Assembly (NCBI GenBank): GCA_017440085.1
Contig: JAFSHW010000012.1
Coordinates: forward strand, 16,931 to 80,930
From: Clostridia bacterium
GTDB lineage: Bacteria; Bacillota; Clostridia; Oscillospirales; UBA644
DNA length: 64,000 nt
Direction of reading: 5' to 3'
Shown: positions 7,858 through 57,197 of the stretch, piece by piece
How the letters are laid out: each line of letters opens with the position of its first letter
Numbering within the stretch: position 1 is the stretch's first letter
Notes under the pieces: generated by a model
What the model was told of the DNA's origin: nothing
Database searches by the model: none
Seen by the model: the letters and a program-made list of their open reading frames with translations, nothing else
Made by a program: the position numbers and the translations under genes

Positions 7858-9078
7858 ATGCGTAATATAAATGAAAAAACAGGGCGAATTCGTTCGAAAA
7901 CCGGAAAAATTGTGCTGTATGCAATTCTTGCTGCAATGCTCCTTTGCGGTTTAGGCGTATATTTTGCCTCAACAATACCTAATAAATACTACGTCTTTGA
8001 ATCGGATACGGAAAATCTTGAAGAAATACTGAATCAAGAAAAATTTTCCCCCGTAACTTCAACGGTGAGCGTTTCAGACGGCAATTATTCCGTAGATTTT
8101 AAGTTGTGGGGAATAATGCCAATAAAGAGCTCCTCCGTAGAGGTTGTGGCTAGCCAATCGCTTATGGCAGGCGGTGAACCTTTTGGAATAAAATTCTACA
8201 CTGAGGGCGTCATTGTGGTCAGCTTGACCGACGTTGAAACTGAAAACGGAAAAGTCAATCCTGCCTATAATAGCGGAATTCGAGTAAAAGACATAATCAC
8301 CACTATAAACGGAAAAAAAATCAAAAGCAACGAATATCTCACCGAAACGGTGAAAAATTGCGGAGGCAAAGAGTTGACTCTCGGCGTTAAGCGAGAAAAC
8401 CTTATTTTTGAAATTAAAACTACTCCCGTTAAGGACTCAAAAGGAATTTACCGCTTGGGTTGCTGGGTAAGGGACAGTACAGCAGGAATAGGGACGGTAA
8501 CATTCTACGACCCTGTAAACAAGACTTTTGCAGGGTTGGGCCACGGAATTTGCGATAGCGACACAGGAGAACTTATGCCGATTTCTTATGGAAAAGCTTT
8601 GGAAGCTGAAATTTTTTCTGTTGTTAAAGGAATTGCAGGAACTCCCGGAGAACTTCGCGGTGCGTTCAATGAATTTTCAAACGTTGGAACCATAGTTAAG
8701 AATTGCGAAGAGGGCGTTTTCGGCACTTTGAAAGACGGATACGAACCTAAAGGCCCCCTCTACCCTGTTGCCTTCAAGCAAGATATACGGGAAGGAAGCG
8801 CGGAAATACTTTGCACTACGGACAGTAATGGAGTTCAAAAATATGAGATTGAAATTCTGCATATATATTCAAACTCAGTTAAAACTACTAAAAATATGGT
8901 GATTTCCATTACCGACGAAGCTCTTTTGGAAAAAACCGGCGGCATAGTTCAAGGGATGTCAGGTTCGCCTATAATACAAAACGGTAAAATTATTGGAGCA
9001 GTAACTCACGTTATGATTAACGACCCAACAAAGGGCTACGGAATTTTTATTGAAAATATGCTTAATGCGGCAGGCTGA
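7858..9078 (+). CDS. spoIVB: SpoIVB peptidase (S55), sporulation signalling protease
   Basis: It has an N-terminal TM helix, a PDZ-like region (IRVKDIITTINGKKI) and the catalytic-region motif GMSGSPIIQNGKIIGAVTHV; 406 aa. Confidence 0.9.
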   Translation: MRNINEKTGRIRSKTGKIVLYAILAAMLLCGLGVYFASTIPNKYYVFESDTENLEEILNQEKFSPVTSTVSVSDGNYSVDFKLWGIMPIKSSSVEVVASQSLMAGGEPFGIKFYTEGVIVVSLTDVETENGKVNPAYNSGIRVKDIITTINGKKIKSNEYLTETVKNCGGKELTLGVKRENLIFEIKTTPVKDSKGIYRLGCWVRDSTAGIGTVTFYDPVNKTFAGLGHGICDSDTGELMPISYGKALEAEIFSVVKGIAGTPGELRGAFNEFSNVGTIVKNCEEGVFGTLKDGYEPKGPLYPVAFKQDIREGSAEILCTTDSNGVQKYEIEILHIYSNSVKTTKNMVISITDEALLEKTGGIVQGMSGSPIIQNGKIIGAVTHVMINDPTKGYGIFIENMLNAAG

Positions 9079-9184: not shown

Positions 9185-9212
9185 TGAAACCTTTATGAAA
9201 ACTTATCGTCTA
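9185..9212 (+). promoter_or_regulatory. ECF-sigma-type promoter candidate (TGAAAC-N16-CGTCTA)
   Basis: The -35 TGAAAC is at 9185-9190, the spacer is 16 nt, and the -10 CGTCTA is at 9207-9212. The site is 105 nt upstream of the lipoprotein ATG. It has the same -10 and spacing as the site upstream of the ECF sigma gene. Confidence 0.5.
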
Positions 9213-9316: not shown

Positions 9317-10237
9317 ATGAAAAAACGCATTTTAATGTTGTTGCTTGCAGCTGCGATGATTTCCCTCACAGGTTGCCCAAACTCTGAAATCGAGCAGGGA
9401 GAAACAGACAGAGAAAATGAAAATTACGTAAATACTACGGATGAAGAACTCTCTGATGTTCCAAGCACGGAAAGAGACGAAGAAACGGAAAGCGTTGAAC
9501 CTTCAATTCCCGGCTCTGACGGACCGTCTAAACCGGTTGAAGATGACGAGAATCAAGAAGCTGAGGACCAAGGAGAACAAACGGTACCCTCAAATCCCGA
9601 CGTCATAACTCCCGAAGATGGGCCTTACGAATGGGAAGACCCCACGGAAGATCACGTCTGCGATGAGCCGCAAGAAAACCCCGACGTCGGAAGCTACGAT
9701 GCAAAACCCGTAATATACCTCTACCCCGAAGAAACTATGGAAATTTCCGTAGAATTGGATTATAACGGAACGTTTACAACGACTTATCCTGCGTATAACG
9801 ATGGCTGGAACGTGGTTGCAAATCCCGATGGAACCATAGAATACAACGGAAGAGAATACTACTGTTTATTCTGGGAAGGTATTTCAAACGTTTATTATCA
9901 AATTGACAAGGGCTTCTGTGTAAAAGGAGAAGATACTGAAAAATTCTTGGAAGAATCGCTGAAAAAGCTTGGTCTGACAGACAAAGAAGCTAACGAATTT
10001 ATTATTTATTGGCTTCCCAAAATGGAAAACAATGCGTATAATGTAATTTCTTTCCAGGAAGAGCTTTATACGGAAAACGCAGAGTTGATAATCTCCCCTA
10101 CACCCGATACTCTTATCCGAGTATTTATGGCGTGGAAAGGCGTTGACGAGTTCGTGAAAATCGAACCTCAAACCCTTACCGCACCTGAAAGAAACGGTTT
10201 CACCGTTATCGAGTGGGGCGGCTCAGAACTTAAATAA
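9317..10237 (+). CDS. Lipoprotein with an acidic linker and a conserved C-terminal domain of unknown function
   Basis: The signal peptide ends in the lipobox ISLTGC and is followed by a D/E/P-rich linker. The C-terminal 178 aa are nearly identical to the C-terminus of the next gene. Confidence 0.8.
   Translation: MKKRILMLLLAAAMISLTGCPNSEIEQGETDRENENYVNTTDEELSDVPSTERDEETESVEPSIPGSDGPSKPVEDDENQEAEDQGEQTVPSNPDVITPEDGPYEWEDPTEDHVCDEPQENPDVGSYDAKPVIYLYPEETMEISVELDYNGTFTTTYPAYNDGWNVVANPDGTIEYNGREYYCLFWEGISNVYYQIDKGFCVKGEDTEKFLEESLKKLGLTDKEANEFIIYWLPKMENNAYNVISFQEELYTENAELIISPTPDTLIRVFMAWKGVDEFVKIEPQTLTAPERNGFTVIEWGGSELK
9701..10237 (+). repeat. Copy 1 of a 537-bp duplicated gene module (C-terminal domain of the tandem lipoproteins)
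   Basis: It aligns collinearly with 11266-11802 at a constant offset of 1565 bp. The encoded 178 aa differ at 9 positions. Confidence 0.9.
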
Positions 10238-10248
10238 GGAGAATAATT

Positions 10249-11802
10249 ATGAAAAAAAGATTATTAACTATATTACTTGCAGCTACTATGATTTCAATGA
10301 CAGGTTGCTTAAACTCTGAAATTGAAAAACCAAATGAAGGCGAAATTTCAGTTAATCCTGCAGACCCAGGCTCCGACGGACCGTCTAAACCTGTTGAGGA
10401 AGAACCTGAATCTATGACAGTTTCTACCGTAATCATAGGAGATAACGCGATTTTAAACATAAGTCCTGTTGACGGTGCTTTAGGTTATGAAGTTTACGTT
10501 AACGGAACGCTTTTAGAAAAAATTTCCGAAACGACGTATACATTAAATAATACCCAAGTAAACGTCGGTTTAAATGAAATTTCTATCAAAGCATATAACG
10601 AATCCGGTTACATTGAAAGTGTTAATACGACCGTAGGAAAACTTTCAACACCAACAGTTTCGATTGAAGATAACATCTTAACTATTACTCAAGATGTAGA
10701 TAATGCAATTGGATATAAAATATACGATGAAGCAGGAGCTTACATAACGAATATCCGAGCTGGAAGCACTTACGACTTTAACAATATGTCACTTGAAAAA
10801 GGAGAACACTACCTAAGCATTCAATCTTATGGTTCACACTCTGTGGGTTGGCTGCCTTCCGAAAGGGAAACATTTATCATCTCTAATAAATCCGAGCCAA
10901 CGTGCGAAATTCCCCACCAAACACCAAAAATTTCATTTCATAATAAATACTTAACAATTTCATTAGATCCAACCGGAACATACCCGCAAGAAGAAACTTT
11001 AAGAATGTATATTAACGAAGAAATTGTTTGTCTCGGACGCGATATTTGGAAAGTTTTCTTCCCAGAAAACATTTATTCCCAAACATTTGATTTTGCTACA
11101 TTTGACTTAAAAGTCGGCGATGTTATAACAGTTAAAACCTCCTGCGCTTTTGAAGAAGATAATGAAGAGCTTGTTGCTTCAATTACATTAACCGAGGAGC
11201 ATTTTTGTTATGATGCCCCAATTGAAGACCCAGACTTCACTGAAGACCCTGAAAATCCGGGAACTGCAAAACCCGTAATCTACCTCTACCCCGAAGAAAC
11301 TATGGAAATTTCCGTGGAATTGGATTACAACGGAATGTTTACAACGACTTATCCTTCATACAACAATGGTTGGAAAGTGGTCGCAAATCCTGATGGAACG
11401 ATAAACTACAATGGCAGAGAATACTATTGCTTATTCTGGGAAGGTATTTCAAACGTCTATTATCAAATTGACAAGGGCTTCTGCGTAAAAGGCGAAGATA
11501 CGGAAAAATTCCTGGAAGAATCCCTTAAAAAGCTTGGTTTGACAGATAAAGAGGCTAATGAATTTATCATTTATTGGCTGCCCAAAATGGAAAACAATGC
11601 GTATAATGTAATTTCTTTCCAGGAAGAGCTTTATACGGAAAACGCAGAGTTGACAATCTCCCCTGCACCCGATACTCTTATCCGAGTATTTATGGCGTGG
11701 AAAGGCGTTGACGAGTTCGTGGAAATCGAACCTCAAACCCTTACATCACCCGAAAGAAACGGATTTACCGTTATCGAATGGGGCGGCTCTGAACTGAAAT
11801 AA
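10249..11802 (+). CDS. Lipoprotein paralog with inserted Ig/FN3-like middle region and the same C-terminal domain
   Basis: The signal peptide ends in the lipobox ISMTGC, and the PGSDGPSKPVE linker motif is shared with the upstream gene. The middle region of about 270 aa is beta-rich. The C-terminal 178 aa match 169/178 residues of the upstream gene by hand alignment. Confidence 0.8.
   Translation: MKKRLLTILLAATMISMTGCLNSEIEKPNEGEISVNPADPGSDGPSKPVEEEPESMTVSTVIIGDNAILNISPVDGALGYEVYVNGTLLEKISETTYTLNNTQVNVGLNEISIKAYNESGYIESVNTTVGKLSTPTVSIEDNILTITQDVDNAIGYKIYDEAGAYITNIRAGSTYDFNNMSLEKGEHYLSIQSYGSHSVGWLPSERETFIISNKSEPTCEIPHQTPKISFHNKYLTISLDPTGTYPQEETLRMYINEEIVCLGRDIWKVFFPENIYSQTFDFATFDLKVGDVITVKTSCAFEEDNEELVASITLTEEHFCYDAPIEDPDFTEDPENPGTAKPVIYLYPEETMEISVELDYNGMFTTTYPSYNNGWKVVANPDGTINYNGREYYCLFWEGISNVYYQIDKGFCVKGEDTEKFLEESLKKLGLTDKEANEFIIYWLPKMENNAYNVISFQEELYTENAELTISPAPDTLIRVFMAWKGVDEFVEIEPQTLTSPERNGFTVIEWGGSELK
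11266..11802 (+). repeat. Copy 2 of the 537-bp duplicated gene module
   Basis: See copy 1. The sub-block 11581-11721 differs from 10016-10156 at only 2 nt by hand alignment. Confidence 0.9.
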
Positions 11803-14347: not shown

Positions 14348-15559
14348 TTAATCTTTAATTTCAACTTCAATTTCACGCCAATGGCAAATATCCTCAATAA
14401 CAGTGCAATCCAAAACTCCGCAAACGCCCTCATCTGTAACTGAAAACGCCGTTTCAGCTTCTTCAATTTCAAGCCCGTGGAGGTCTATACGAAGAGTTTC
14501 GTCAAAAACGGAAGATATATATTCCTTAGCCGACTCTTCATCATAAGAAACAGATTCAAGCTCCTGCTCATAAAGCACGGTAGTTACCAATGAAATGGGC
14601 AACACTATGTTTTCGCCGATGCAAAGCTCTTTTTCCTCTGAAACAGACTCAAAATACTCATAGTTCACTTTATTGAAAAACGAAAGATTTACGCTGATAC
14701 CGAAAATTTTAAGCGCATAAAATTTGTCGCTTTCGCCCGTAGCTATCGTTTCCGTTGATTCAAAGGGGCAAAATTCAGTGTATGTTCTTCTTGTTCTTGC
14801 CAATATTTTTGCATCTGAATGGACCAATCTGTAGCCTATAACCTTGCTGTTATAAACACCGCTGACAAGTAATTGCCCTTTACGCACCGCTTGAAAATTT
14901 TCCACTTGAGGAATTCCTTTATAAGCTTCAATCAGCAGAATTTGTCCGTCCCGTTTCGCAAAAATATTCCCAGGTGCAGAGCCGTCCTTTTCTGGGGGCA
15001 CGGTGCTTTCGTCAACCTCAACCTGAACCTTTGAACCTTTTACGTTTATGGTAATATAGGCAATTTTATCGTAATTATGCATAATGCTGTATCTTATCCG
15101 CGGTAAATCGTGGCCTGAGTTAAGAGCTCCAACGTAAATACCGTTTTCAGCCAGTGTTGACAATAAATTCTCTTCAGGATAAGAAACCAAACCGGAAATC
15201 TCAATCTTCCAAATAAAAGAAGACATTATTATAAACATAACCACGGAAAACACAGCTCCTGCAAGAATCCCGGAACGAAGCTTATATTTTAAAATATCTT
15301 CGATCAAGCCTTCTGTTTTCTTTACCGTAATTTCCATTTCACGCAAGCTTTGAGTTGAATCGGCAATTTCAAAAAGTTTCTCCGAAGAAAAGGAATGAAT
15401 TTTAAAGCTTATTCTGCACTGATTTATTTTTCGTATATCCCAAATTTCAATATTTTCATTTTTTACGGCGTTAAGCAGTTCTTCAGTATAAAATCCGCAA
15501 ACGTCTATCTCTTGCCAACCAACGAAGTAATCCCCGTAATCAGTAACCGTTTTTCGCAA
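14348..15559 (-). CDS. yqfD: Sporulation protein YqfD
   Basis: It is 403 aa with a single central TM helix. Its position between yqfC and phoH is typical of spore formers. Confidence 0.8.
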   Translation of the reverse strand: MRKTVTDYGDYFVGWQEIDVCGFYTEELLNAVKNENIEIWDIRKINQCRISFKIHSFSSEKLFEIADSTQSLREMEITVKKTEGLIEDILKYKLRSGILAGAVFSVVMFIIMSSFIWKIEISGLVSYPEENLLSTLAENGIYVGALNSGHDLPRIRYSIMHNYDKIAYITINVKGSKVQVEVDESTVPPEKDGSAPGNIFAKRDGQILLIEAYKGIPQVENFQAVRKGQLLVSGVYNSKVIGYRLVHSDAKILARTRRTYTEFCPFESTETIATGESDKFYALKIFGISVNLSFFNKVNYEYFESVSEEKELCIGENIVLPISLVTTVLYEQELESVSYDEESAKEYISSVFDETLRIDLHGLEIEEAETAFSVTDEGVCGVLDCTVIEDICHWREIEVEIKD

Positions 15560-15565
15560 AGGAAC

Positions 15566-15853
15566 TCACTCCTCAAACTCAAAAGAGGTAACTTTTCCGC
15601 AAATCATAACCGATTGTTTGGTAAGATTTTTCAGATTAAGCCCGCTTCCGTAGAATCTGATTTTTTGACTTCCCGCTAAAAGCTTTATAGTTTCCGTATC
15701 GTATTCAACGATTACTACCCCTTTATATTCCTCAACGGACACTTGATTCCTACCGTAAAACTCTATTTGAGGAAGCGAAGGGATAACTGATTTCCCATTT
15801 GAAATTGTTCTTCTGTTTTTCAAAATTTCCACGCTCCGATATAATCTATTCAA
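15566..15853 (-). CDS. yqfC: Sporulation protein YqfC (YabP family)
   Basis: It is 95 aa, with a YabP-like beta-rich sequence (IEFYGRNQVSVEEYKGVV...). It lies immediately upstream of yqfD. Confidence 0.75.
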   Translation of the reverse strand: MNRLYRSVEILKNRRTISNGKSVIPSLPQIEFYGRNQVSVEEYKGVVIVEYDTETIKLLAGSQKIRFYGSGLNLKNLTKQSVMICGKVTSFEFEE

Positions 15854-42425: not shown

Positions 42426-43289
42426 TTATTGATTAACTATTGCAGAAATAAAATGATAGAAATCACGCTGGTAAATATTTTCTGCGCTTACTCTGAAATT
42501 CACTCCGTTAACCTGAAAATCTGCTACAATAAAATCCCTTAAAAGGGGCTCGGATTCAATATTAATCTCCGAGGTTCCATAGAAAAGCACACCAACGTTC
42601 CCATATTCAGTCCCAATATATGTGGTTATTTTTTCGGAAGATGTGGTATAAAGACAATCATAAGGTAAGCCCAATTTACTTGCAGAAACGGAAATTTTTT
42701 CACCTTGGAGCTCACATTCAAAACTCATTATGTCTCGAACCAAAGTTCCGTCATTAGTAAAATAAACAGTGTGGCTATCAGATTCCAAAACGTCACATTT
42801 CGCTTTTAAATGCACTGAATCAACGGTAATAGTGTTTAAATCAATGCCTAAATAAGCAACCGCATCTTCATCACTCCACGTTTCAGTATAATGAAGTGCC
42901 GGGTCAAGGTATTTAGGCGCAGCACTTAATGTATCTTCAATTTTATTTACAAAGCATAAAAATTTAACCGCATCGTTATTTTTCACATCATCGGGAATTC
43001 CAATATTTAAATCGAGGTCGCCGTCATTTACCGTTTCACCGTCCAATCCAGTATTTTCAACAGTTGAAGGATTTTCGGGAAAGGGCAGTAAATCACCAAT
43101 TTTCCCTTCGTGAATTAAACCGAAGCTTATGCAGGCAATTAAACAAACGCCGCATACAGATACGGAAATTTTGGCAAATTTATTTATTTTGTTTTTTCTA
43201 TCTGTATTATAATTTTCTCTTCGTTCCAACAGTTCATTGGTTATTTCGCTACAACTCTTCATGTATAAAGTCCTCCTTGTTAAGTTCAT
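42426..43289 (-). CDS. Putative anti-sigma factor (single-pass membrane protein)
   Basis: It lies immediately downstream of the ECF sigma gene and overlaps it. It has a short cytoplasmic N-terminus, a TM helix (ISVSVCGVCLIACISFGLI) and an extracytoplasmic domain of about 220 aa. An alternative ATG at 43262 overlaps the sigma stop by 14 nt. Confidence 0.6.
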   Translation of the reverse strand: MNLTRRTLYMKSCSEITNELLERRENYNTDRKNKINKFAKISVSVCGVCLIACISFGLIHEGKIGDLLPFPENPSTVENTGLDGETVNDGDLDLNIGIPDDVKNNDAVKFLCFVNKIEDTLSAAPKYLDPALHYTETWSDEDAVAYLGIDLNTITVDSVHLKAKCDVLESDSHTVYFTNDGTLVRDIMSFECELQGEKISVSASKLGLPYDCLYTTSSEKITTYIGTEYGNVGVLFYGTSEINIESEPLLRDFIVADFQVNGVNFRVSAENIYQRDFYHFISAIVNQ

Positions 43290-43812
43290 TTTTCAAAGCG
43301 TTTTTCGCTCTGTACAAAAGATTTTTTACCTGACGCTTATTCTTCCTCATAACAGTTGAAATTTCAGAATTGGAAAAGTCTTCAAAATAAGCTAACCACA
43401 AAATTTGACGGTAATCGGGGTTTAAATTTTTCAAAACTTCATATATTACCCGATTGCGTTCGCCCGTTATATAGGAATTTTCAACATCCTGCTCATCGCT
43501 GAGATATGTTTGAACATCATCCATTGATAAATCTAACCGCTTTGAATTGCGACGGAGATAGTCAATAGCAATATTCCTACCTACTGCGTAAAGCCAAGTT
43601 TTAAAAGAACTTTCCTCCTTAAATTTCGGTTTTTTAATAATCAACTTTAAAAAGGTTTCTTCCATTAAATCCTCTGCGGCATAAATATTACCGACAAAGC
43701 CGTTAAGATAAAGAATCAACCCGTCCTTATAATCTCTTACTATTTCAGTTAATCCGTTGTCGTCACCCTCTAAGAAACGGCGGTAGCTACTTGCACCGTT
43801 ATCCATTGACAT
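43249..43812 (-). CDS. ECF (group IV) RNA polymerase sigma-70 family factor
   Basis: It is 187 aa with a region 2 (FKTWLYAVGRNIAIDYLRR) and a region 4 HTH (FSNSEISTVMRKNKRQVKNLLYRAKNALK). Confidence 0.85.
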   Translation of the reverse strand: MSMDNGASSYRRFLEGDDNGLTEIVRDYKDGLILYLNGFVGNIYAAEDLMEETFLKLIIKKPKFKEESSFKTWLYAVGRNIAIDYLRRNSKRLDLSMDDVQTYLSDEQDVENSYITGERNRVIYEVLKNLNPDYRQILWLAYFEDFSNSEISTVMRKNKRQVKNLLYRAKNALKNELNKEDFIHEEL

Positions 43813-43851
43813 TCCCCCTTTCCGAAAGGATTTTTACTTCCTTTCACCTAT

Positions 43852-43879
43852 TAGACGATAAAAACCACAAAAAGTCTCA
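43852..43879 (-). promoter_or_regulatory. ECF-sigma-type (probably autoregulatory) promoter candidate (TGAGAC-N16-CGTCTA)
   Basis: On the minus strand the -35 TGAGAC is at 43879-43874, the spacer is 16 nt, and the -10 CGTCTA is at 43857-43852. The site is 40 nt upstream of the sigma gene ATG (43812). Confidence 0.55.
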
Positions 43880-43895
43880 CTTCTCCAAAAAAGTT

Positions 43896-43935: not shown

Positions 43936-46803
43936 TTATTTTCCGTAATTTTCGAGATTCGAGCCTGAAAGTTTAATGTCGTCCAAATTATCAAATTCCA
44001 TTCCTTTTTCGAAATAATTTGCTGACAAATGCAACGATTCAGCCTTTTCACCTTTTTCAAAGTCCCGGTTATTTTGGCAAATCCACGTTCCAACTATTGA
44101 AACGTTACCGTTAAGTTTCAGCATTGTACTACCGGAATCTACAATTATGCCGCCGTATACGTTAAATGAACCTGTTCCGTTTAAATCAAAACTAACATTG
44201 GGAGAAACCCACATTATTGGGTTTACCATATTAAGAGTTCCTGTAAAATCTTCCGCAGTATAAACGTATCTGCCCCAATATTCTTTATTATTTTTTTCCA
44301 AGAAGTCCTCGAAATCAAATGCGGTAAATCTTGGGTTGACCATAGTAACTGTACAGTTTCCTGAAAGCGAAGCATCGATATTTCCGGCATCATGTCCGAG
44401 TGAATACGCATACACGTTTTCAGCCCCGTCCAAAACTTTAAGACTGGTAAGGTTTCCGAAAGTAATTGAATTCGAAATTATCTGATTTTTACTTTCACCT
44501 ATAATTATAAATTCACCGTTTGCAGCCTGCGCCGAATAAGCGTGCTCCACGTTAAATCCGGGGATATCGTAATTCACACCCCAGTTTGAAGGATTTGCGT
44601 GGTAATCTCTGATTATACCGTTTTCACTTCCGGCACCAACCTGGATACCTATATTTACAGCCAAGGTATGAATGTAATCAACGAAATGATTATCGCAGCG
44701 GTAAGTTGCAAAGTCTATACCGTTATAAGAGGTAGTCATATTAAGGTCAACCAAATAAATACCAGCGCCGTTACCTTGAATAGCAAAGGAATATGGAACG
44801 AGATCTGTAATATTTTGCTCGTTATACGTTATTGACAAGCCTCTCATACCGGCACCGTCATAAAGTGTAAACAGAGATTCTCCGTCAGGGTCGTTTTTAC
44901 CAAAGGATGTATTCAAATCCGTAGCAGGAGGTTTGAGCGAGAAATATGATTTTTCAGCCCACATAATTGCACCGCGAACTTCAATTCCAGCCCAAACGTC
45001 TATATGTTCGTTTACGTAATATTTTCCTGCAGGAATATAAACTGTGCCGCCCGTTTCTTTGAGAGAATCTATTGCAGATTGCAATTTTTCGGAAATATCC
45101 TCACCATTTTCAGCGTTATAAGGAGCTTGGGAAAGGTTTACAAATTCTTTGGAAGCAGGCTTAGTTTCAATATCAAAGCTTAGGTCTGTTTCGGGGATTG
45201 CAACAGTATTTTCATCGTAAATCACTTGGTATTTTCTGTTATCTGAACCTTCAAAGGAAGAATTTACCAACAAAGAATACGTATTTGCCAAATCAACAAA
45301 AGCCGTACCCTGAGACTTAACGGTACAATCAACCATAGAAAGTTTAACCTTACCGCAGTTTACAATAGCATTGGCACCGACGCTTTCAAAATTGCAATAC
45401 TGAACAGAAAAACCGTGGTCGCAATCAGGACCGATATATACTGCTGCCGCACCGTCGTTTCCAACTGCTCTGAAATTACAATCGGTCAGAGTAAAGTCGT
45501 AAGCGGAATCCATATAAAAGCAATAGTAGCAATCTACTATATTCATATCGCTGAGAAATGCGTGAGGAATACCTTTTTCCGAAGAGCTGACAAAAACTCC
45601 TATATGATAGCCGTCAATATTGATATTTCTGTAGAAAGTCCAGTCAACTCTACGCAACACCATACCCGTTGAATTGCGAAGCATCCAAGTTCTGAGAAGT
45701 TCCGCATTGGGAGTTCCCGGAAGTCCGCTTTCAATCCAAAAATCAGGGGATAAATTAAAAGTGTCAAATCTAGGAGTATCGTAGCAACCGTCTATTTTAA
45801 AGCCCATATAAAGGCAGGTTCCGGAAATATCTCTGTAATTTTGAAGAGAAGCTGTTGTGTTTGAAATTCCGATATATGAATTAATAAACGTTACGTTTTT
45901 AAGAGTAACACCCTGGTCTTGGCCTGCATAAAGGTCAGCGTTTTGGCATATGGTAGGTGGATAAGGAATAAAATCACCGTTTACGAGAGTCTGCTCAGGG
46001 TACCAAAAGGCAACATTCATAACTGCGGAATGAGAAGAAACTCTAATCGCAGATTTTTCATCTTCAATTTCACCTTTACCGCCGTAAATACACAATACTG
46101 TACCGTTAGCAGTTCCCTTTTCAAGTTCGCCCACGATACCTACGTTTTGCGGTATAATAAGTGTTTCTGTAAGGCAATAAAAACCTGCAGGAACAAAAAC
46201 TGTTCCACCACCCTTTGCCTCCGCAGCAGCAAGTGCTGATTTGAAAGCTTCTGTATCATCAGTAAGGCCGTCACCTTTGGCTCCGTGAAGAATTACGTTT
46301 TCTTCAGCAACTATGTGGTAAGGCATATCATAATCGGAATCAATAAGTCCGATTTGTTCGTTTAAATCTTTTGATTCAATCTGAGAACCGTACTCTGAAA
46401 GCATTTTTTCCTCAGAATATTTAATTTCATAATCAGATAAGGAAATATAATTCCAATCGCAAGAAAGAAGATTTTCAACGTCCACAACTTCTGCAGAAAC
46501 TTCAGGATGACCCGTTTGGTCAGGCAAGGAAGTGATTTTTTCTATATTGCCGTAATCTTTTTTAACTGGAACGGCAGTTTCGGAAGATTCTGCACCAATT
46601 ATAAAATCTTCGGGAATATCAAACTTTTCATAATCGGAAGCTCTTGCAGCTTCATTCGTCAAATTCGCTATCCATTCAAGATCTTCGTGATAGATATTGA
46701 CGTCGTTTCCACCTAAGAAAGACATCATTTCAATGGGAGATTTCGCACATGCAGTACTTAAAAGAACCGCTGTCAAAAGAAAAATCGCTATTATTTTTTT
46801 CAT
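43936..46803 (-). CDS. Secreted/lipid-anchored protein with two pectate-lyase-superfamily beta-helix modules (GH55-like architecture)
   Basis: The start is trimmed to MKKIIAIFLLTAVLLSTAC (ATG at 46803). The motif typical of the right-handed beta-helix glycosidase N-cap occurs twice (GAKGDGLTDDTEAFKSALAAAEAKGGGTVFVPAGFY and NGEDISEKLQSAIDSLKETGGTVYIPAGKYY). Confidence 0.8.
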   Translation of the reverse strand: MKKIIAIFLLTAVLLSTACAKSPIEMMSFLGGNDVNIYHEDLEWIANLTNEAARASDYEKFDIPEDFIIGAESSETAVPVKKDYGNIEKITSLPDQTGHPEVSAEVVDVENLLSCDWNYISLSDYEIKYSEEKMLSEYGSQIESKDLNEQIGLIDSDYDMPYHIVAEENVILHGAKGDGLTDDTEAFKSALAAAEAKGGGTVFVPAGFYCLTETLIIPQNVGIVGELEKGTANGTVLCIYGGKGEIEDEKSAIRVSSHSAVMNVAFWYPEQTLVNGDFIPYPPTICQNADLYAGQDQGVTLKNVTFINSYIGISNTTASLQNYRDISGTCLYMGFKIDGCYDTPRFDTFNLSPDFWIESGLPGTPNAELLRTWMLRNSTGMVLRRVDWTFYRNINIDGYHIGVFVSSSEKGIPHAFLSDMNIVDCYYCFYMDSAYDFTLTDCNFRAVGNDGAAAVYIGPDCDHGFSVQYCNFESVGANAIVNCGKVKLSMVDCTVKSQGTAFVDLANTYSLLVNSSFEGSDNRKYQVIYDENTVAIPETDLSFDIETKPASKEFVNLSQAPYNAENGEDISEKLQSAIDSLKETGGTVYIPAGKYYVNEHIDVWAGIEVRGAIMWAEKSYFSLKPPATDLNTSFGKNDPDGESLFTLYDGAGMRGLSITYNEQNITDLVPYSFAIQGNGAGIYLVDLNMTTSYNGIDFATYRCDNHFVDYIHTLAVNIGIQVGAGSENGIIRDYHANPSNWGVNYDIPGFNVEHAYSAQAANGEFIIIGESKNQIISNSITFGNLTSLKVLDGAENVYAYSLGHDAGNIDASLSGNCTVTMVNPRFTAFDFEDFLEKNNKEYWGRYVYTAEDFTGTLNMVNPIMWVSPNVSFDLNGTGSFNVYGGIIVDSGSTMLKLNGNVSIVGTWICQNNRDFEKGEKAESLHLSANYFEKGMEFDNLDDIKLSGSNLENYGK

Positions 46804-46848
46804 ACAGGCACTTCCTTTATAAAACTTTGTATTATAGCCTATAATTAT

Positions 46849-46877
46849 ATTATACCATATGTGAAATGTGTTGTCAA
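46849..46877 (-). promoter_or_regulatory. Consensus sigma-A promoter for the GH55-like gene
   Basis: On the minus strand: TTGACA, a 17-nt spacer (ending TGg), then TATAAT, about 45 nt upstream of ATG 46803. Confidence 0.55.
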
Positions 46878-46901
46878 GCAACTAAAATCAAAATAAGTGT
46901 A

Positions 46902-54101: not shown

Positions 54102-54140
54102 GACCTTTCCCTTTTGATTAAGGGGAAAGGTCTTCTTCTT
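54102..54140 (+). terminator. Intrinsic terminator after the transketolase genes
   Basis: A 10-bp stem pairs GACCTTTCCC with GGGAAAGGTC, followed by TTCTTCTTGTT. Confidence 0.6.
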
Positions 54141-54186: not shown

Positions 54187-54214
54187 TGGAACTTTTCCCG
54201 ATAAAACTCGTCTA
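54187..54214 (+). promoter_or_regulatory. ECF-sigma-type promoter candidate (TGGAAC-N16-CGTCTA)
   Basis: The -35 TGGAAC is at 54187-54192, the spacer is 16 nt, and the -10 CGTCTA is at 54209-54214. The site is 200 nt upstream of the Big_2-sortase-like gene. Confidence 0.45.
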
Positions 54215-54281
54215 AATGTCGAACAGAATCCATTCGAGGCTAGTTTCACGATATTGTTGGAAAATTACCGCATTTAAAGGC

Positions 54282-54310
54282 TTGATTTTTCAGCGATTTT
54301 ATGGTAAAAT
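54282..54310 (+). promoter_or_regulatory. Sigma-A-type promoter candidate
   Basis: TTGATT, a 17-nt spacer (ending TGg), then TAAAAT, about 105 nt upstream of ATG 54415. Confidence 0.45.
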
Positions 54311-54414
54311 TACGAGTGGTTTAATGATTTTGAACAGAAGACACGGTTTGTATCAAAAATATAAGACAAAACCGTGAATATTCATCTGAAATCCAAATTA
54401 CGGAGGCTATACCA

Positions 54415-55995
54415 ATGCAAAAATATTCAAAACGTGTAAGATTTATGGCTTTAATTCTTTGCCTTATAATGGCTTTAGGTTGCTTTACCGCTTGCGGAGA
54501 TAACGAGCCTGTGGAAGTAAGAGTTAAATCCATTACCCTCAACTTGAAGGAATACACGTTCACAAATTATGAAACAAGGGTTAAGCTTGAAGCATTTGCT
54601 TTACCTTCAGACGCAGTTAACGCTAACAATCTCGTTTGGGAAAGCGCTAACGTAAGCGTTGCAACAATTAATTCAGAAAATGAAGTTATACCTATGTCAA
54701 ACGGTAAAACGGTTATTACCGTTACCACCGAAGACGGTTCAGTTAAAGCTTTCTGTAATATCACGGTTGACGTTGAAGAAATCGTAGAAGTTCCTACGGT
54801 TCCCGTTGAAAGCGTAGTTCTCAGCTCTGAATCCTACACATTTGAAGAAATTGGAGCAACGGTAAGAATAGGCGAAGATATTATTCCATTCTCCGCTACC
54901 GACAAAGCTGTAACTTGGTCTTCTTCAGACGAATCAGTTGCAACCGTTGACCCTGTTACAGGTACTATCACAGCGGTTAAAAAAGGCACTGCAATTATTA
55001 CCGTAACCACAAACGACGGTGGATTTACAGACACCTGCGAAATTACTGTTAAACCTAAGCAGCAAACATCAGGTAACGAAGGTTCCGGAAATCAAGGAAG
55101 CCAGGGAAGTCAAGGCAACCAGAGTACTCAGGGCAACACGGGAACTTCCACAACGAAATTCAACACAAAAAACATTCCCGCGCCCAAGCTTGACGCGGCA
55201 GGATTCCTTGTAAGCGATAACCTTGAATATTTCAATAAATACAATAAAGACTGCGTTGCTTGGCTCTATATTCCAAACACAAAAGGTTCTGACGGTATGG
55301 GAGAAATCAACTTCCCCACAGCTCAGGGAACGGACAATGAGTTCTATTTGGGCGTAGACCTTGACAAGACCTGGAAAGACGAAGGCTCAGTAGTTCTTGA
55401 CTGCAGAAACACCTCAATCAGAGAAACAGGCGAAATTTCAGATAAGAATACCATTTTCTACGGTCACGCAAAAGGCAAAACCACCTTTGACAGACTTGAA
55501 TTTGCAACAAGAGACGCAGATTGGTTTGCAAAAGAAAGCAACAGATACGTATACCTCAACACACTTGAATACGAAACCGTTTGGAAAGTTTTCGCTTGCT
55601 ACTACACAGACTCCTCTCAGCATTATTACCTTAACACAAACTGGATGCTCGATACTGACACAATCAACGCTAAGCTTGCAGCACTCTCTTCAGCAGAAAA
55701 ATTGGAGCTTGTGCTTGACGAACAGAAAATGCACGATTTCTCCATCGATAAGGCATCTTTCGTTGAATTTGCAAACAACTGGCGTTCAAGAATCAGCGCA
55801 CCAGAAAACGACCACGAATACGAAACTACTTACAAACCCTATGCTTCCATCCTCAGAAACAGAGATTATGGCGTAACAGTTGGTCCTGACGACCAGATAC
55901 TTACACTTTCAACTTGTTCTTCTCACATTGGTGATATGAGATACGTTGTACACGCAGTGCTTGTACAATCCAGACCCCGAACAGACAGAGACTAA
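54415..55995 (+). CDS. Lipoprotein-type protein with two Big_2-like Ig domains, a G/S/Q/N linker and a C-terminal class-B-sortase-like domain
   Basis: The signal peptide carries a Cys lipobox candidate (LGCFTAC). There are two repeats of about 90 aa ending in (T)VTT(E/N)DG...C.ITV. The sortase-B-like motifs are DCVAWLYIPNT, IFYGHAKG, ILTLSTC and RYVVHAVL. Confidence 0.75.
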   Translation: MQKYSKRVRFMALILCLIMALGCFTACGDNEPVEVRVKSITLNLKEYTFTNYETRVKLEAFALPSDAVNANNLVWESANVSVATINSENEVIPMSNGKTVITVTTEDGSVKAFCNITVDVEEIVEVPTVPVESVVLSSESYTFEEIGATVRIGEDIIPFSATDKAVTWSSSDESVATVDPVTGTITAVKKGTAIITVTTNDGGFTDTCEITVKPKQQTSGNEGSGNQGSQGSQGNQSTQGNTGTSTTKFNTKNIPAPKLDAAGFLVSDNLEYFNKYNKDCVAWLYIPNTKGSDGMGEINFPTAQGTDNEFYLGVDLDKTWKDEGSVVLDCRNTSIRETGEISDKNTIFYGHAKGKTTFDRLEFATRDADWFAKESNRYVYLNTLEYETVWKVFACYYTDSSQHYYLNTNWMLDTDTINAKLAALSSAEKLELVLDEQKMHDFSIDKASFVEFANNWRSRISAPENDHEYETTYKPYASILRNRDYGVTVGPDDQILTLSTCSSHIGDMRYVVHAVLVQSRPRTDRD

Positions 55996-56015
55996 TCTAA
56001 GAACGGAGTGAAACA

Positions 56016-57137
56016 ATGGAAAATAACGAAAATAAAGACGTTCAAACAACTGAAAAAACCGCTAAAAAAGCTCCCGTAAAGAAAAAGAACGGAGCAAGCA
56101 ACGTTATCAGAATCGTAGTTCTCATACTTTGTATAGGTGTCTTCGCATTTTCCGTAATCAAAATCGGTTCAGATATTTTAGATGAATCAAGCACGCAGGA
56201 TGAAATTGACGGTTTAAAAGATTTAATAGACAGAGATGACCCTAGCGTTACTCCAGAAGATCCGGAAAATCCCGTAGTCCCCGACGACAAAACGGAAAAT
56301 CCAGACCAAACGGAAGATCCGAATACGGGAAGCGAAAACCCTGACGACAATCAGAATCCCGATGATAATCAGCAGGATTACTACGACGACCAGACGAAGG
56401 AAGAGGCTGAAAAGGATAAAACTCAGAATACTATCGTTTCAGTTACAAGACCCGGCTCTTCATTGGATAAAACGGACCTTTCCGTTATTCACCCAAACGA
56501 TATAGATTTGAACGATATTTCATATCTCAGCGGTCTTAATTTTGATAAGCTTATGGAAAGAAACGACGATACCGTGGCTTGGATCTGCATTCCAGGCAAC
56601 GACTCAATAACAGGTCTTCCAATTGATACTGCAGTAGTTCAAGCTGACAATAACGACTTCTACCTTTCCCACAGCTTTGACAAATCTTCAAACGTAAATG
56701 GTTGGATTTATGCGGACTACAGAAATAATATGTCAAGCATAACTTCAAACTATAACACTATTATTTACGGCCACGCAAGAAGCTATAAAATGTTCGGCGG
56801 CTTGAAGAATTTAAACGAAACTCCCGAATGGTATAAAAACGGCTACAACCACTTCATTAAAATCACAACTCCTAAAGACGAAACCATTTGGCAGATTTTC
56901 TCTTGGCACGAAACAAATGTTTACTACAATTACATTCAGACAAGATTTGAAAACCCTCAGGAATTTATTGATTTTGCAACAGAACTTCAGGATAAGAATC
57001 AGTTGAAAGGATACTTCTCAACTTTTGAATTCACAGAAAAAAGCAGAATCCTCACACTTTCAACATGCAAAGGCTCAAACCCTGCAAACAGAGTTGCAGT
57101 TCACGCTGTTTTGGTGGCAAGAAATCCTTTGGATTGA
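56016..57137 (+). CDS. Class B sortase-like protein with an N-terminal TM anchor and an acidic/Pro-rich linker
   Basis: It has a TM helix (IRIVVLILCIGVFAFSVI) and a PEDPENP-type low-complexity linker. The sortase motifs are DTVAWICIPGN, IIYGHARS, ILTLSTC and RVAVHAVL. It starts 20 nt after the upstream gene. Confidence 0.8.
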   Translation: MENNENKDVQTTEKTAKKAPVKKKNGASNVIRIVVLILCIGVFAFSVIKIGSDILDESSTQDEIDGLKDLIDRDDPSVTPEDPENPVVPDDKTENPDQTEDPNTGSENPDDNQNPDDNQQDYYDDQTKEEAEKDKTQNTIVSVTRPGSSLDKTDLSVIHPNDIDLNDISYLSGLNFDKLMERNDDTVAWICIPGNDSITGLPIDTAVVQADNNDFYLSHSFDKSSNVNGWIYADYRNNMSSITSNYNTIIYGHARSYKMFGGLKNLNETPEWYKNGYNHFIKITTPKDETIWQIFSWHETNVYYNYIQTRFENPQEFIDFATELQDKNQLKGYFSTFEFTEKSRILTLSTCKGSNPANRVAVHAVLVARNPLD

Positions 57138-57163
57138 TAAAATTGAATACAAATTCTGAAATT

Positions 57164-57197
57164 AGGGGAACCTTCAATAGAGGGTTCCCTTGTTTTT
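57164..57197 (+). terminator. Intrinsic terminator after the sortase-like pair
   Basis: The stem pairs AGGGGAACC with GGTTCCCTT (one G-U pair), followed by GTTTTTAT. Confidence 0.55.

Follow-up and report, generated by a model that had tools for sequence, protein, structure and literature searches.

The stretch of DNA analysed here, a 64,000-nucleotide segment of a Clostridia contig (JAFSHW010000012.1) that we call the window, contains at 54415-57137 two adjacent genes, A and B, whose predicted products resemble class B sortases. Our preferred reading, to which we give a probability of about 0.6, is that A and B form a co-transcribed pair of membrane-tethered class-B-fold sortases, a vertically inherited core-genome unit of uncultured Oscillospiraceae-like Clostridia of the gut and rumen, in which B is the workhorse, A is a paralog, and transcription starts from a promoter of the extracytoplasmic function (ECF) type and, in the subclade of the window, from a sigmaA-type promoter as well. 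The pair is a new architectural and regulatory form of class-B-fold sortases, not a new kind of system. Knowledge of sortases comes almost entirely from pathogens. The Clostridia of gut and rumen that carry A-B are abundant but uncultured. Its lipoprotein-type architecture with a stalk of immunoglobulin-like (Ig) domains, the conserved helical expansion by the substrate-recognition loop of A, and the ECF-sigma-type promoter are not described in the literature that we searched.

Two tandem proteins with a class B sortase fold

The initial annotation had placed two open reading frames (ORFs) side by side in this region, the first encoding a lipobox-type signal peptide, two Big_2 Ig domains, a linker and a C-terminal SrtB-like domain. 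Both ORFs lie exactly where they had been drawn, and the order of parts in A was borne out. The two genes and their parts are listed below, with model confidence given as the predicted local distance difference test (pLDDT).

54415-55995, plus strand: gene A, lipoprotein-type, Ig-stalked class-B-fold sortase of 526 amino acids; ribosome-binding site GGAGG at 54403-54407
54415-54495, plus strand: signal peptide of A with lipobox, residues 1-27 (...CFTA/C27); C27 invariant in 15 family members
54520-55050, plus strand: two Big_2 Ig-like domains of A, about residues 36-118 and 131-212; Pfam PF02368 in two stretches
55054-55176, plus strand: disordered G/Q/T/S/N-rich linker of A, residues 214-254; pLDDT <50 over 218-246
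55177-55992, plus strand: SrtB-fold catalytic domain of A, residues 255-526; H351, C501, R509
55654-55857, plus strand: family-specific helical expansion of A, residues ~414-481 (roughly 70 residues), at the site of SrtB helix H5, between beta6 and beta7
56016-57137, plus strand: gene B, transmembrane-anchored class-B-fold sortase of 373 amino acids with an acidic spacer; ribosome-binding site GGAG at 56005-56008
56100-56225, plus strand: transmembrane and juxtamembrane helix of B, residues ~29-70; continuous helix 28-70, pLDDT about 90
56226-56495, plus strand: disordered acidic D/P/E/N-rich linker of B, residues ~71-160; pLDDT <50 over 76-154
56493-57134, plus strand: SrtB-fold catalytic domain of B, residues 160-373; H253, C351, R359; pLDDT 85-98

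As for the catalytic domains, the motifs that had first been recognised are present in both proteins: YGHA, with the histidine (H351 in A, H253 in B), LTLSTC, with the cysteine (C501 and C351), and R..VHAVLV, with the arginine (R509 and R359). A check of the His-Cys-Arg triad against solved SrtB enzymes, which had been proposed at the outset, shows that it aligns in A and B alike with the catalytic Cys, Arg and YGH His of SrtB from Bacillus anthracis, Staphylococcus aureus and Clostridioides difficile. By sequence comparison, the similarity to SrtB is far beyond chance, with E-values in hidden Markov model and PDB searches down to 3.6e-19. Both proteins belong to the sortase superfamily (Pfam PF04203; MEROPS C60), with scores of 34.3 bits for A and 30.9 bits for B against a curated cut-off of 26.6, and with the triad in place. 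In phmmer searches of PDB sequences, A is matched best by C. difficile SrtB (5gyj, 5e-14) and B by B. anthracis SrtB (1rz2/2oqw, 3.6e-19), in an alignment that spans the catalytic H, C and R. A homolog of B that is 66% identical to it (P0130) carries the NCBI name "class B sortase."

The structural models point to class B as well, the class in which helix H5 lies between beta6 and beta7 of an eight-stranded barrel. The AlphaFold2 model of A, built on a 15-sequence family alignment (pLDDT 80.7; predicted template modelling (TM) score 0.73), has SrtB enzymes as its nearest PDB neighbours, the top 17 Foldseek matches all being class B sortases with TM-scores on the target of 0.61-0.80. The AlphaFold model of B, built on 38 sequences (pLDDT 77.2), shows a canonical, high-confidence core with one H5-type helix at residues 314-326. 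Among NCBIfam models, TIGR03064, the sortase_srtB equivalog, is the best for both proteins, with 83.9 bits for A and 110.7 bits for B, neither of which reaches its cut-off of 153.75. These matches begin at positions 56 and 61 of the 235 in the profile, and the match to C. difficile SrtB begins at its residue 46, which in each case is after helix H1. In class B sortases, an N-terminal bundle of H1, H2 and a loop packs against the barrel right behind the membrane anchor. Ahead of the first strand the models contain only a short helix (270-276 in A, 176-182 in B), and the long juxtamembrane helix of B (28-70) is separated from the core by an 80-residue disordered linker. Overall, we regard A and B as real sortases that are probably active.

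Comparison with characterised enzymes brings out what is unusual about the pair. Like C. difficile SrtB (CD2718; PDB 4ux7, 5gyj), whose catalytic residues are C209, H116 and R217 (PMC5118464), A and B combine a class B fold with a Cys-His-Arg triad, and the spacing from Cys to Arg is 8 residues in all three enzymes (C209-R217, C501-R509, C351-R359). However, identity to C. difficile SrtB is only about 23%, and the overall layout differs. The C. difficile enzyme is short, its catalytic domain directly following the N-terminal anchor, and it is active in constructs that lack only the first 26 residues (PMC5118464), whereas the stalks are 230 residues long in A and 130 in B. In A, the lipobox, the two Ig domains and the roughly 70-residue expansion at H5 are further differences, as is the arrangement of two paralogs in one operon with an ECF-type promoter upstream. 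Isd-type SrtB enzymes of S. aureus and B. anthracis (1ng5, 1qwz, 4lfd, 1rz2, 2oqw) provide the best PDB sequence matches for B and the top structural matches for A, and they have the TLSTC and YGH motifs in common with both. While Isd-type srtB lies in the iron-regulated isd operon, adjoining the gene for its NPQTN substrate IsdC (PMC4155245), A-B has neither an isd context nor an adjoining substrate. Its neighbours are tktN-tktC, an AEC-family transporter, tsaE and smc, and no NEAT or Isd genes were found near the pair in the window or in the annotated related loci.

The A model also shares its fold, with TM-scores on the target of 0.73-0.80, with two pilus enzymes, Spy0129 of Streptococcus pyogenes (3psq) and SrtB of the Streptococcus pneumoniae type II pilus (4y4q), which exemplify the use of class B sortases outside heme uptake. 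Their presence among the structural matches would fit a pilus-assembly set made up of a pilin polymerase and a second enzyme that joins the fibre to the wall, in parallel with the class B sortases of streptococcal pilus biogenesis, and the helical insertion of A could then act like the "lid" of pilin-specific sortases. However, the genes for pilus sortases, these two included, normally lie among pilin genes, and in none of the about 19 genomes examined does the pair adjoin a gene of pilin type (one with an LPXTG signal and with Ig-like domains that carry a pilin motif). Moreover, by sequence A and B are matched best by SrtBs without a pilus role, those of B. anthracis, S. aureus and C. difficile. 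We therefore regard a role of A-B in pilus assembly as very improbable.

Stalks, helical expansion and distribution of the A-type enzymes

The preferred reading of A-B as a tethered sortase pair calls for a closer look at how the two enzymes are anchored. The first ATG of A is preceded, at a distance of 8 nt, by a strong GGAGG. The encoded N-terminus has an n-region KRVR, a hydrophobic helix at 6-24 in the model and the sequence ...LGCFTA/C27GD, which we take to obey the PROSITE-type lipobox rule. With a signal peptide that ends in a lipobox and an invariant +1 Cys, A is a predicted bacterial lipoprotein; in some A-type representatives (P0244, P0245, P0246 and P0250), a plain transmembrane anchor stands in place of the lipobox. 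The Big_2 domains are recognised by Pfam in two matches (E 2.2e-22) and are modelled as two all-beta domains with a pLDDT of about 90. Located between anchor and catalytic domain, they are consistent with a stalk, in line with the spacer role first suggested for them. The anchor of B had been called unusual, too. Its transmembrane helix and acidic linker (D 20%, P 12%) are indeed present, but a transmembrane anchor is normal for sortases and only the long acidic spacer is out of the ordinary. Since B homologs of 265-642 amino acids align mostly over the catalytic part of the query, the linker appears to be kept in presence while varying in length and sequence. In the models, the reach of A comes from two Ig domains and about 30 disordered residues, and that of B from about 80 disordered acidic residues. 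Such long spacers would let both catalytic domains work away from the membrane surface, within a thick wall.

The second distinctive part of A is the helical expansion. Where C. difficile SrtB has the single helix H5 between beta6 and beta7 (PMC5118464), the A model has six helices (414-481), while B has one helix at the matching site (314-326). The gaps in the alignments of A with B and of A with PDB sequences coincide with this expansion, and residues D445, W456, R459 and R483 are invariant in the 15-member A-type alignment. In SrtB, H5 adjoins the beta6/beta7 loop, which contacts the sorting signal (PMC5118464). The helical bundle that replaces H5 in the model would thus most likely confer a different substrate or nucleophile specificity or serve as a regulated "lid." On the most economical reading, A is a second sortase that differs in specificity or whose active site is gated.

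To delimit the A-type enzymes, we searched the catalytic domain of A exhaustively with HMMER against 1.84 billion representatives (clusters at 50% identity). End-to-end matches in one stretch, at E<=1e-30, are limited to 14 representative clusters. The next matches, at E of about 1e-20 or weaker, come in two stretches, and therefore are without the helical insertion; they include the B-type sequences P0152, P0156, P0222 and P0150. Big_2 is detectable in 9 of 10 further A-type representatives. As seen in these searches, the A-type enzymes are a small, sharply bounded subfamily defined by the Ig domain(s) and the helical expansion at H5, and one that is apparently undescribed so far: the literature searched contained nothing relevant on Ig-sortase fusions, lipobox sortases or ECF-regulated sortases. 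Even if A and B turn out to be ordinary sortases, a clean small subfamily of 14 clusters at 50% identity has been delimited.

The Big_2-sortase fusion recurs in homology searches down to 34% identity. A scan of one genome per GTDB species yielded 19 full-length A loci from about 19 species genomes (34-67% identity), all of them metagenome-assembled genomes of uncultured Oscillospiraceae, Clostridia or Eubacteriales, which come from animal guts (goat, water deer) where a source is named. A B-type sortase directly follows A in every locus that carries the fusion, and most of these loci keep the block tktN-tktC-A-B while their outer flanks differ. Sister clades have B only, in the order tktN-tktC-B, with the start of B 24-35 nt after tktC and no terminator between them. 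One lineage has an A with a single Ig domain, followed by B. In another (L024, 2695-5785; CIM:MAG 1312), a shorter A-type gene (408 amino acids) precedes two tandem B-type genes, a sign that further duplication has reshaped the module. A recent tandem duplication as the origin of A and B themselves was ruled out, because their catalytic domains are only 25% identical.

These patterns suggest a division of labour. B looks like the housekeeping sortase of the clade, because its triad is invariant (in 38 homologs), its core is canonical, it sits at a core-genome site beside transketolase and it stands alone in sister clades. Most likely, B would cleave a C-terminal sorting signal and transfer surface proteins, whose genes would lie elsewhere in the genome, to the cell wall. 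A would be an ancient lineage-specific paralog, lipid- or transmembrane-anchored on one or two Ig domains and a flexible linker.

A different view of A takes it as a catalytically weakened or non-catalytic partner of B (an adaptor, substrate receptor or regulator), one that would bind substrates or wall components by its Ig stalk and helical bundle and leave the transpeptidation to B. What speaks for this is that the triad Arg of the A family alternates with Lys, which is found in seven representatives (P0009, P0024, P0030, P0033, P0241, P0243 and P0247), that every A in the loci found through the fusion has B directly behind it while B stands alone in sister clades, and that A has extra binding-type modules, namely the Ig domains and the helical insertion. 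However, a pseudo-enzyme would be expected to lose the other catalytic residues, and these are strictly kept: His351 and Cys501 do not vary among 15 aligned members of the A type, and all 25 sequences inspected retain the TL(S/x)TC context. In addition, the change from Arg to Lys is conservative, and the A of the window itself has Arg509. We thus consider it distinctly unlikely that A is such a partner.

Operon structure and promoters

The predicted signals that bear on the expression of A and B, and the one upstream of an ECF sigma gene in the window, are as follows.

54102-54132, plus strand: intrinsic terminator of the upstream tktN-tktC; 13-bp stem with 6 GC pairs, then a T-rich tail
54188-54215, plus strand: ECF-sigma-type promoter GGAAC-N16-CGTCTAA, 227 nt upstream of the ATG of A
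54282-54310, plus strand: sigmaA-type promoter with extended -10 (TTGATT-N17-TGgTAAAAT), conserved in the window's subclade
57163-57192, plus strand: intrinsic terminator ending the A-B operon; 13-bp stem, then TTTTT
43851-43880, minus strand: conserved autoregulatory promoter of the ECF sigma gene at 43249-43812, GTGAGAC-N16-CGTCTAAT

Because tktN-tktC ends in a terminator of its own, the A stop codon is only 20 nt from the B start, with a GGAG ahead of B, and a second terminator follows B, A-B is a predicted bicistronic unit, separate from its neighbours and with its own 280-nt promoter region. Within this region, GGAAC-N16-CGTCTAA elements precede A at 13 orthologous loci, which represent three subclades. 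The 16-nt spacing is exact while the spacer sequence is divergent, and the -35 element is GGAAC in 12 of the 13. The exact string GGAAC-N16-CGTC occurs 17 times in 671 kb (window and loci, both strands), 15 of these occurrences being within 400 nt upstream of A. Both halves of the sortase promoter, GGAAC(TT)-N16-CGTC(TAA), match published ECF elements: GGAACTT is the -35 element of sigmaE, with base-specific contacts at -35G, -34G and -31C, and CGTC is a -10 element that many ECF sigma factors have in common (PMC3397946). Promoters with an AAC -35 and a CGTC -10 include those of Escherichia coli sigmaE (GGAACTT), Bacillus subtilis sigmaW/X/M and T. tengcongensis RpoE1. The AAC-core -35, the CGT(C) -10, the fixed spacing of 16-17 nt and the conservation upstream of orthologs thus identify this as a putative ECF-type promoter. 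A limited literature search found no published sortase operon under a promoter of this type.

A sigmaA-type promoter, TTGATT-N17-TGnTAnAAT, is kept in the subclade of the window (L001, L007, L008 and L018) as well as in L002 and L014, and two lineages have the sigmaA-type promoter alone, without the ECF-type element. In L014, GGAAC-N16-CGTC is found about 200 nt upstream of tktN and not upstream of A. The operon would accordingly be read from the ECF-sigma-type promoter and, in the subclade of the window, from the sigmaA-type promoter as well. A-B expression is therefore probably boosted by an envelope-related signal.

Induction by an ECF sigma factor had been proposed in the initial annotation. 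The conserved ECF-type promoter upstream of A supports this proposal, but the sigma factor encoded in the window is probably not the cognate one. Its gene (43249-43812, minus strand) is genuine, with Sigma70_r2 and r4_2 domains and a TIGR02937 score of 102.7 bits (cut-off 42.9), and control of A-B by this factor would be favoured by its own promoter, which has the same -10, CGTCTAA, and the same 16-nt spacing as the sortase promoter. We compared 45 orthologous loci from metagenomes, with roughly 17 orthologs profiled. The upstream regions of these orthologs share gTGAGAc-N16-CGtCTAAT, the -35 being GTGAGAC/GAGAG in most of those profiled, and no AAC-type -35 element was found upstream of any of them. 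The autoregulatory -35 thus differs from the GGAAC of the sortase promoter, and the difference includes -34G, a base that is specifically contacted in the E. coli sigmaE/-35 complex, while the shared CGTC -10 is common to many ECF groups (PMC3397946). Moreover, the gene is 10.6 kb from A-B on the opposite strand, and no ECF-sigma-type gene is among the called genes of five annotated A-B loci. Owing chiefly to the -35 difference, including the specifically contacted -34 position, we think it unlikely that this sigma factor regulates A-B, whose cognate factor is expected to be encoded elsewhere in the genome.

Around the sigma gene itself, a conserved stem-loop-like leader, GAAAGG...CCTTTCGGAAAGGAG, lies between the promoter and the start codon. 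An overlapping downstream ORF (42426-43289), which has no family match, probably encodes its anti-sigma factor. Directly upstream on the same strand, 43936-46881 encodes a 981-residue predicted lipoprotein with a pectate-lyase-like domain (Pect-lyase_RHGA_epim), and a terminator-like hairpin separates this gene from the sigma gene.

The ECF-type element has a relaxed counterpart, GAAAC-N16-CGTCTA, once more in the window, at 9186-9212 (plus strand), 131 nt upstream of two tandem paralogous lipoprotein genes at 9317-10237 and 10249-11802 (plus strand). Among relatives, L082 has an exact copy of the element at the orthologous lipoprotein site and L080 a copy with one mismatch. This second, conserved element suggests that the sortase operon and the lipoprotein operon share a small ECF regulon. 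Both lipoproteins have acidic/Pro-rich linkers, and at the C-terminus they share a domain of about 190 residues that matches no Pfam or NCBIfam model. With 5,434 matches, many of about 210 amino acids (e.g., a Flavonifractor "hypothetical protein"), the family of this domain is very large, and it is unannotated.

Substrates and alternative roles

The initial annotation had reported no ORF in the window with a C-terminal LPXTG/NPQTN-type signal followed by a hydrophobic tail, which we confirmed: a strict LPXTG-like regular expression and a looser scan for C-terminal transmembrane segments with basic tails returned only spurious antisense ORFs. Extending the scans to the surroundings of orthologs, at first in 28 loci and later in the full set of about 840 kb, brought up no canonical signal. 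Tails that resemble those of substrates were seen beside one A-B pair only, on four tandem secreted proteins with Pro/Thr-rich stalks in L014 (588-6069, plus strand), just upstream of tktN-tktC-A-B, which end in a hydrophobic segment and a Lys/Arg-rich tail. They were not accepted as substrates, because they share no LPXTG-like motif. The lipoproteins at 9317-11802 were also considered, on account of a C-terminal, NPQTN-like "EPQTL," and were ruled out because the Thr position varies (T/E/N/A/V) across their family.

Does the lack of an adjoining substrate speak against a sorting role? To the premise that class B sortases are normally encoded beside their substrates there is a published exception. 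C. difficile SrtB, the single housekeeping sortase of the cell, has seven or eight diverse predicted (S/P)PXTG substrates, none of them adjacent, and is listed by its authors among the known exceptions to the rule (PMC4155245). Since its substrates are dispersed, the absence of a neighbouring substrate is not in itself anomalous, and A and B, within the loci examined, resemble this housekeeping enzyme in not being encoded beside substrates. Of the two options initially offered, divergent sortases with distant substrates are the better supported, because no substrate lies nearby in the window or in about 19 related genomes. Repurposed sortase-fold proteins find no support in B, because its triad is invariant in 38 homologs, and this option could apply only to A-type enzymes, in part of which the triad Arg is Lys.

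The preferred reading, a tethered pair with B as the workhorse, has several points to its disadvantage. Neither protein reaches the TIGR03064 cut-off. Canonical LPXTG, (S/P)PXTG or NPQTN-type signals are absent from the window and about 840 kb of related loci, a weak negative given that this is a fraction of any one genome. The role assigned to the promoter elements is inferred from their conservation. Finally, because the triad Arg is Lys in several A-type subfamilies, some A enzymes may have weakened or altered chemistry.

Two further readings move away from ordinary sorting. According to the first, A and B would serve mainly as envelope proteases or hydrolases, or as transpeptidases that use an acceptor other than protein or lipid II, acting far from the membrane during envelope stress. 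The long stalks of both proteins, the ECF-type promoter and the want of canonical substrates in about 840 kb are all compatible with this idea. However, the characterised relatives are all sorting or pilin transpeptidases, flexible tethers are compatible with action at the membrane, and the scan for substrates took in no more than part of any one genome; we consider this reading highly doubtful. According to the second, A-B would be an envelope-signal-induced, "long-reach" system that holds its catalytic domains tens of nanometres from the membrane, on Ig and disordered stalks, and uses a non-LPXTG signal, an acceptor other than lipid II (for example, mature wall peptide stems, the S-layer or another surface polymer), or both. 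It would add a seventh functional type to the sortases, one confined to gut Oscillospirales, with the helical bundle of A defining a new specificity class. Taken as a whole, this proposal strikes us as improbable. If A and B are active, an unrecognised sorting signal or acceptor would be expected in this clade, and the pair would link surface-protein anchoring to envelope signalling and might offer new ligation specificities for protein engineering.

In several related lineages, the sortase gene(s) are accompanied by a conserved cluster encoding a giant (~1000 amino acids) SBP_bac_1 protein, two ATP-binding cassette (ABC) permeases, an NHL-repeat protein, a Yip1-family membrane protein and DUF5696 (L003, 13091-21585; L029/L030, 11988-21032; L031, 12157-21602; L033/L034, 1-6841). 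Scans of L003 and L029-L034 revealed no C-terminal anchors on the proteins of this cluster. A functional link with A-B was not retained: the window lacks the cluster, and the association is equally well explained by a gene order inherited from a common ancestor. A link with sporulation was likewise set aside; sporulation genes are found in the window and in L004 (spoIIAA-AB-sigF), but the gene order is not conserved. The window itself contains sporulation genes, namely that for a SpoIVB peptidase S55 (7858-9078, plus strand) and YqfD/YqfC-like genes (14348-15853, minus strand), and the source organism is therefore a probable spore-former. The order of spoIVB and the lipoprotein genes is kept in the relatives L080-L083.

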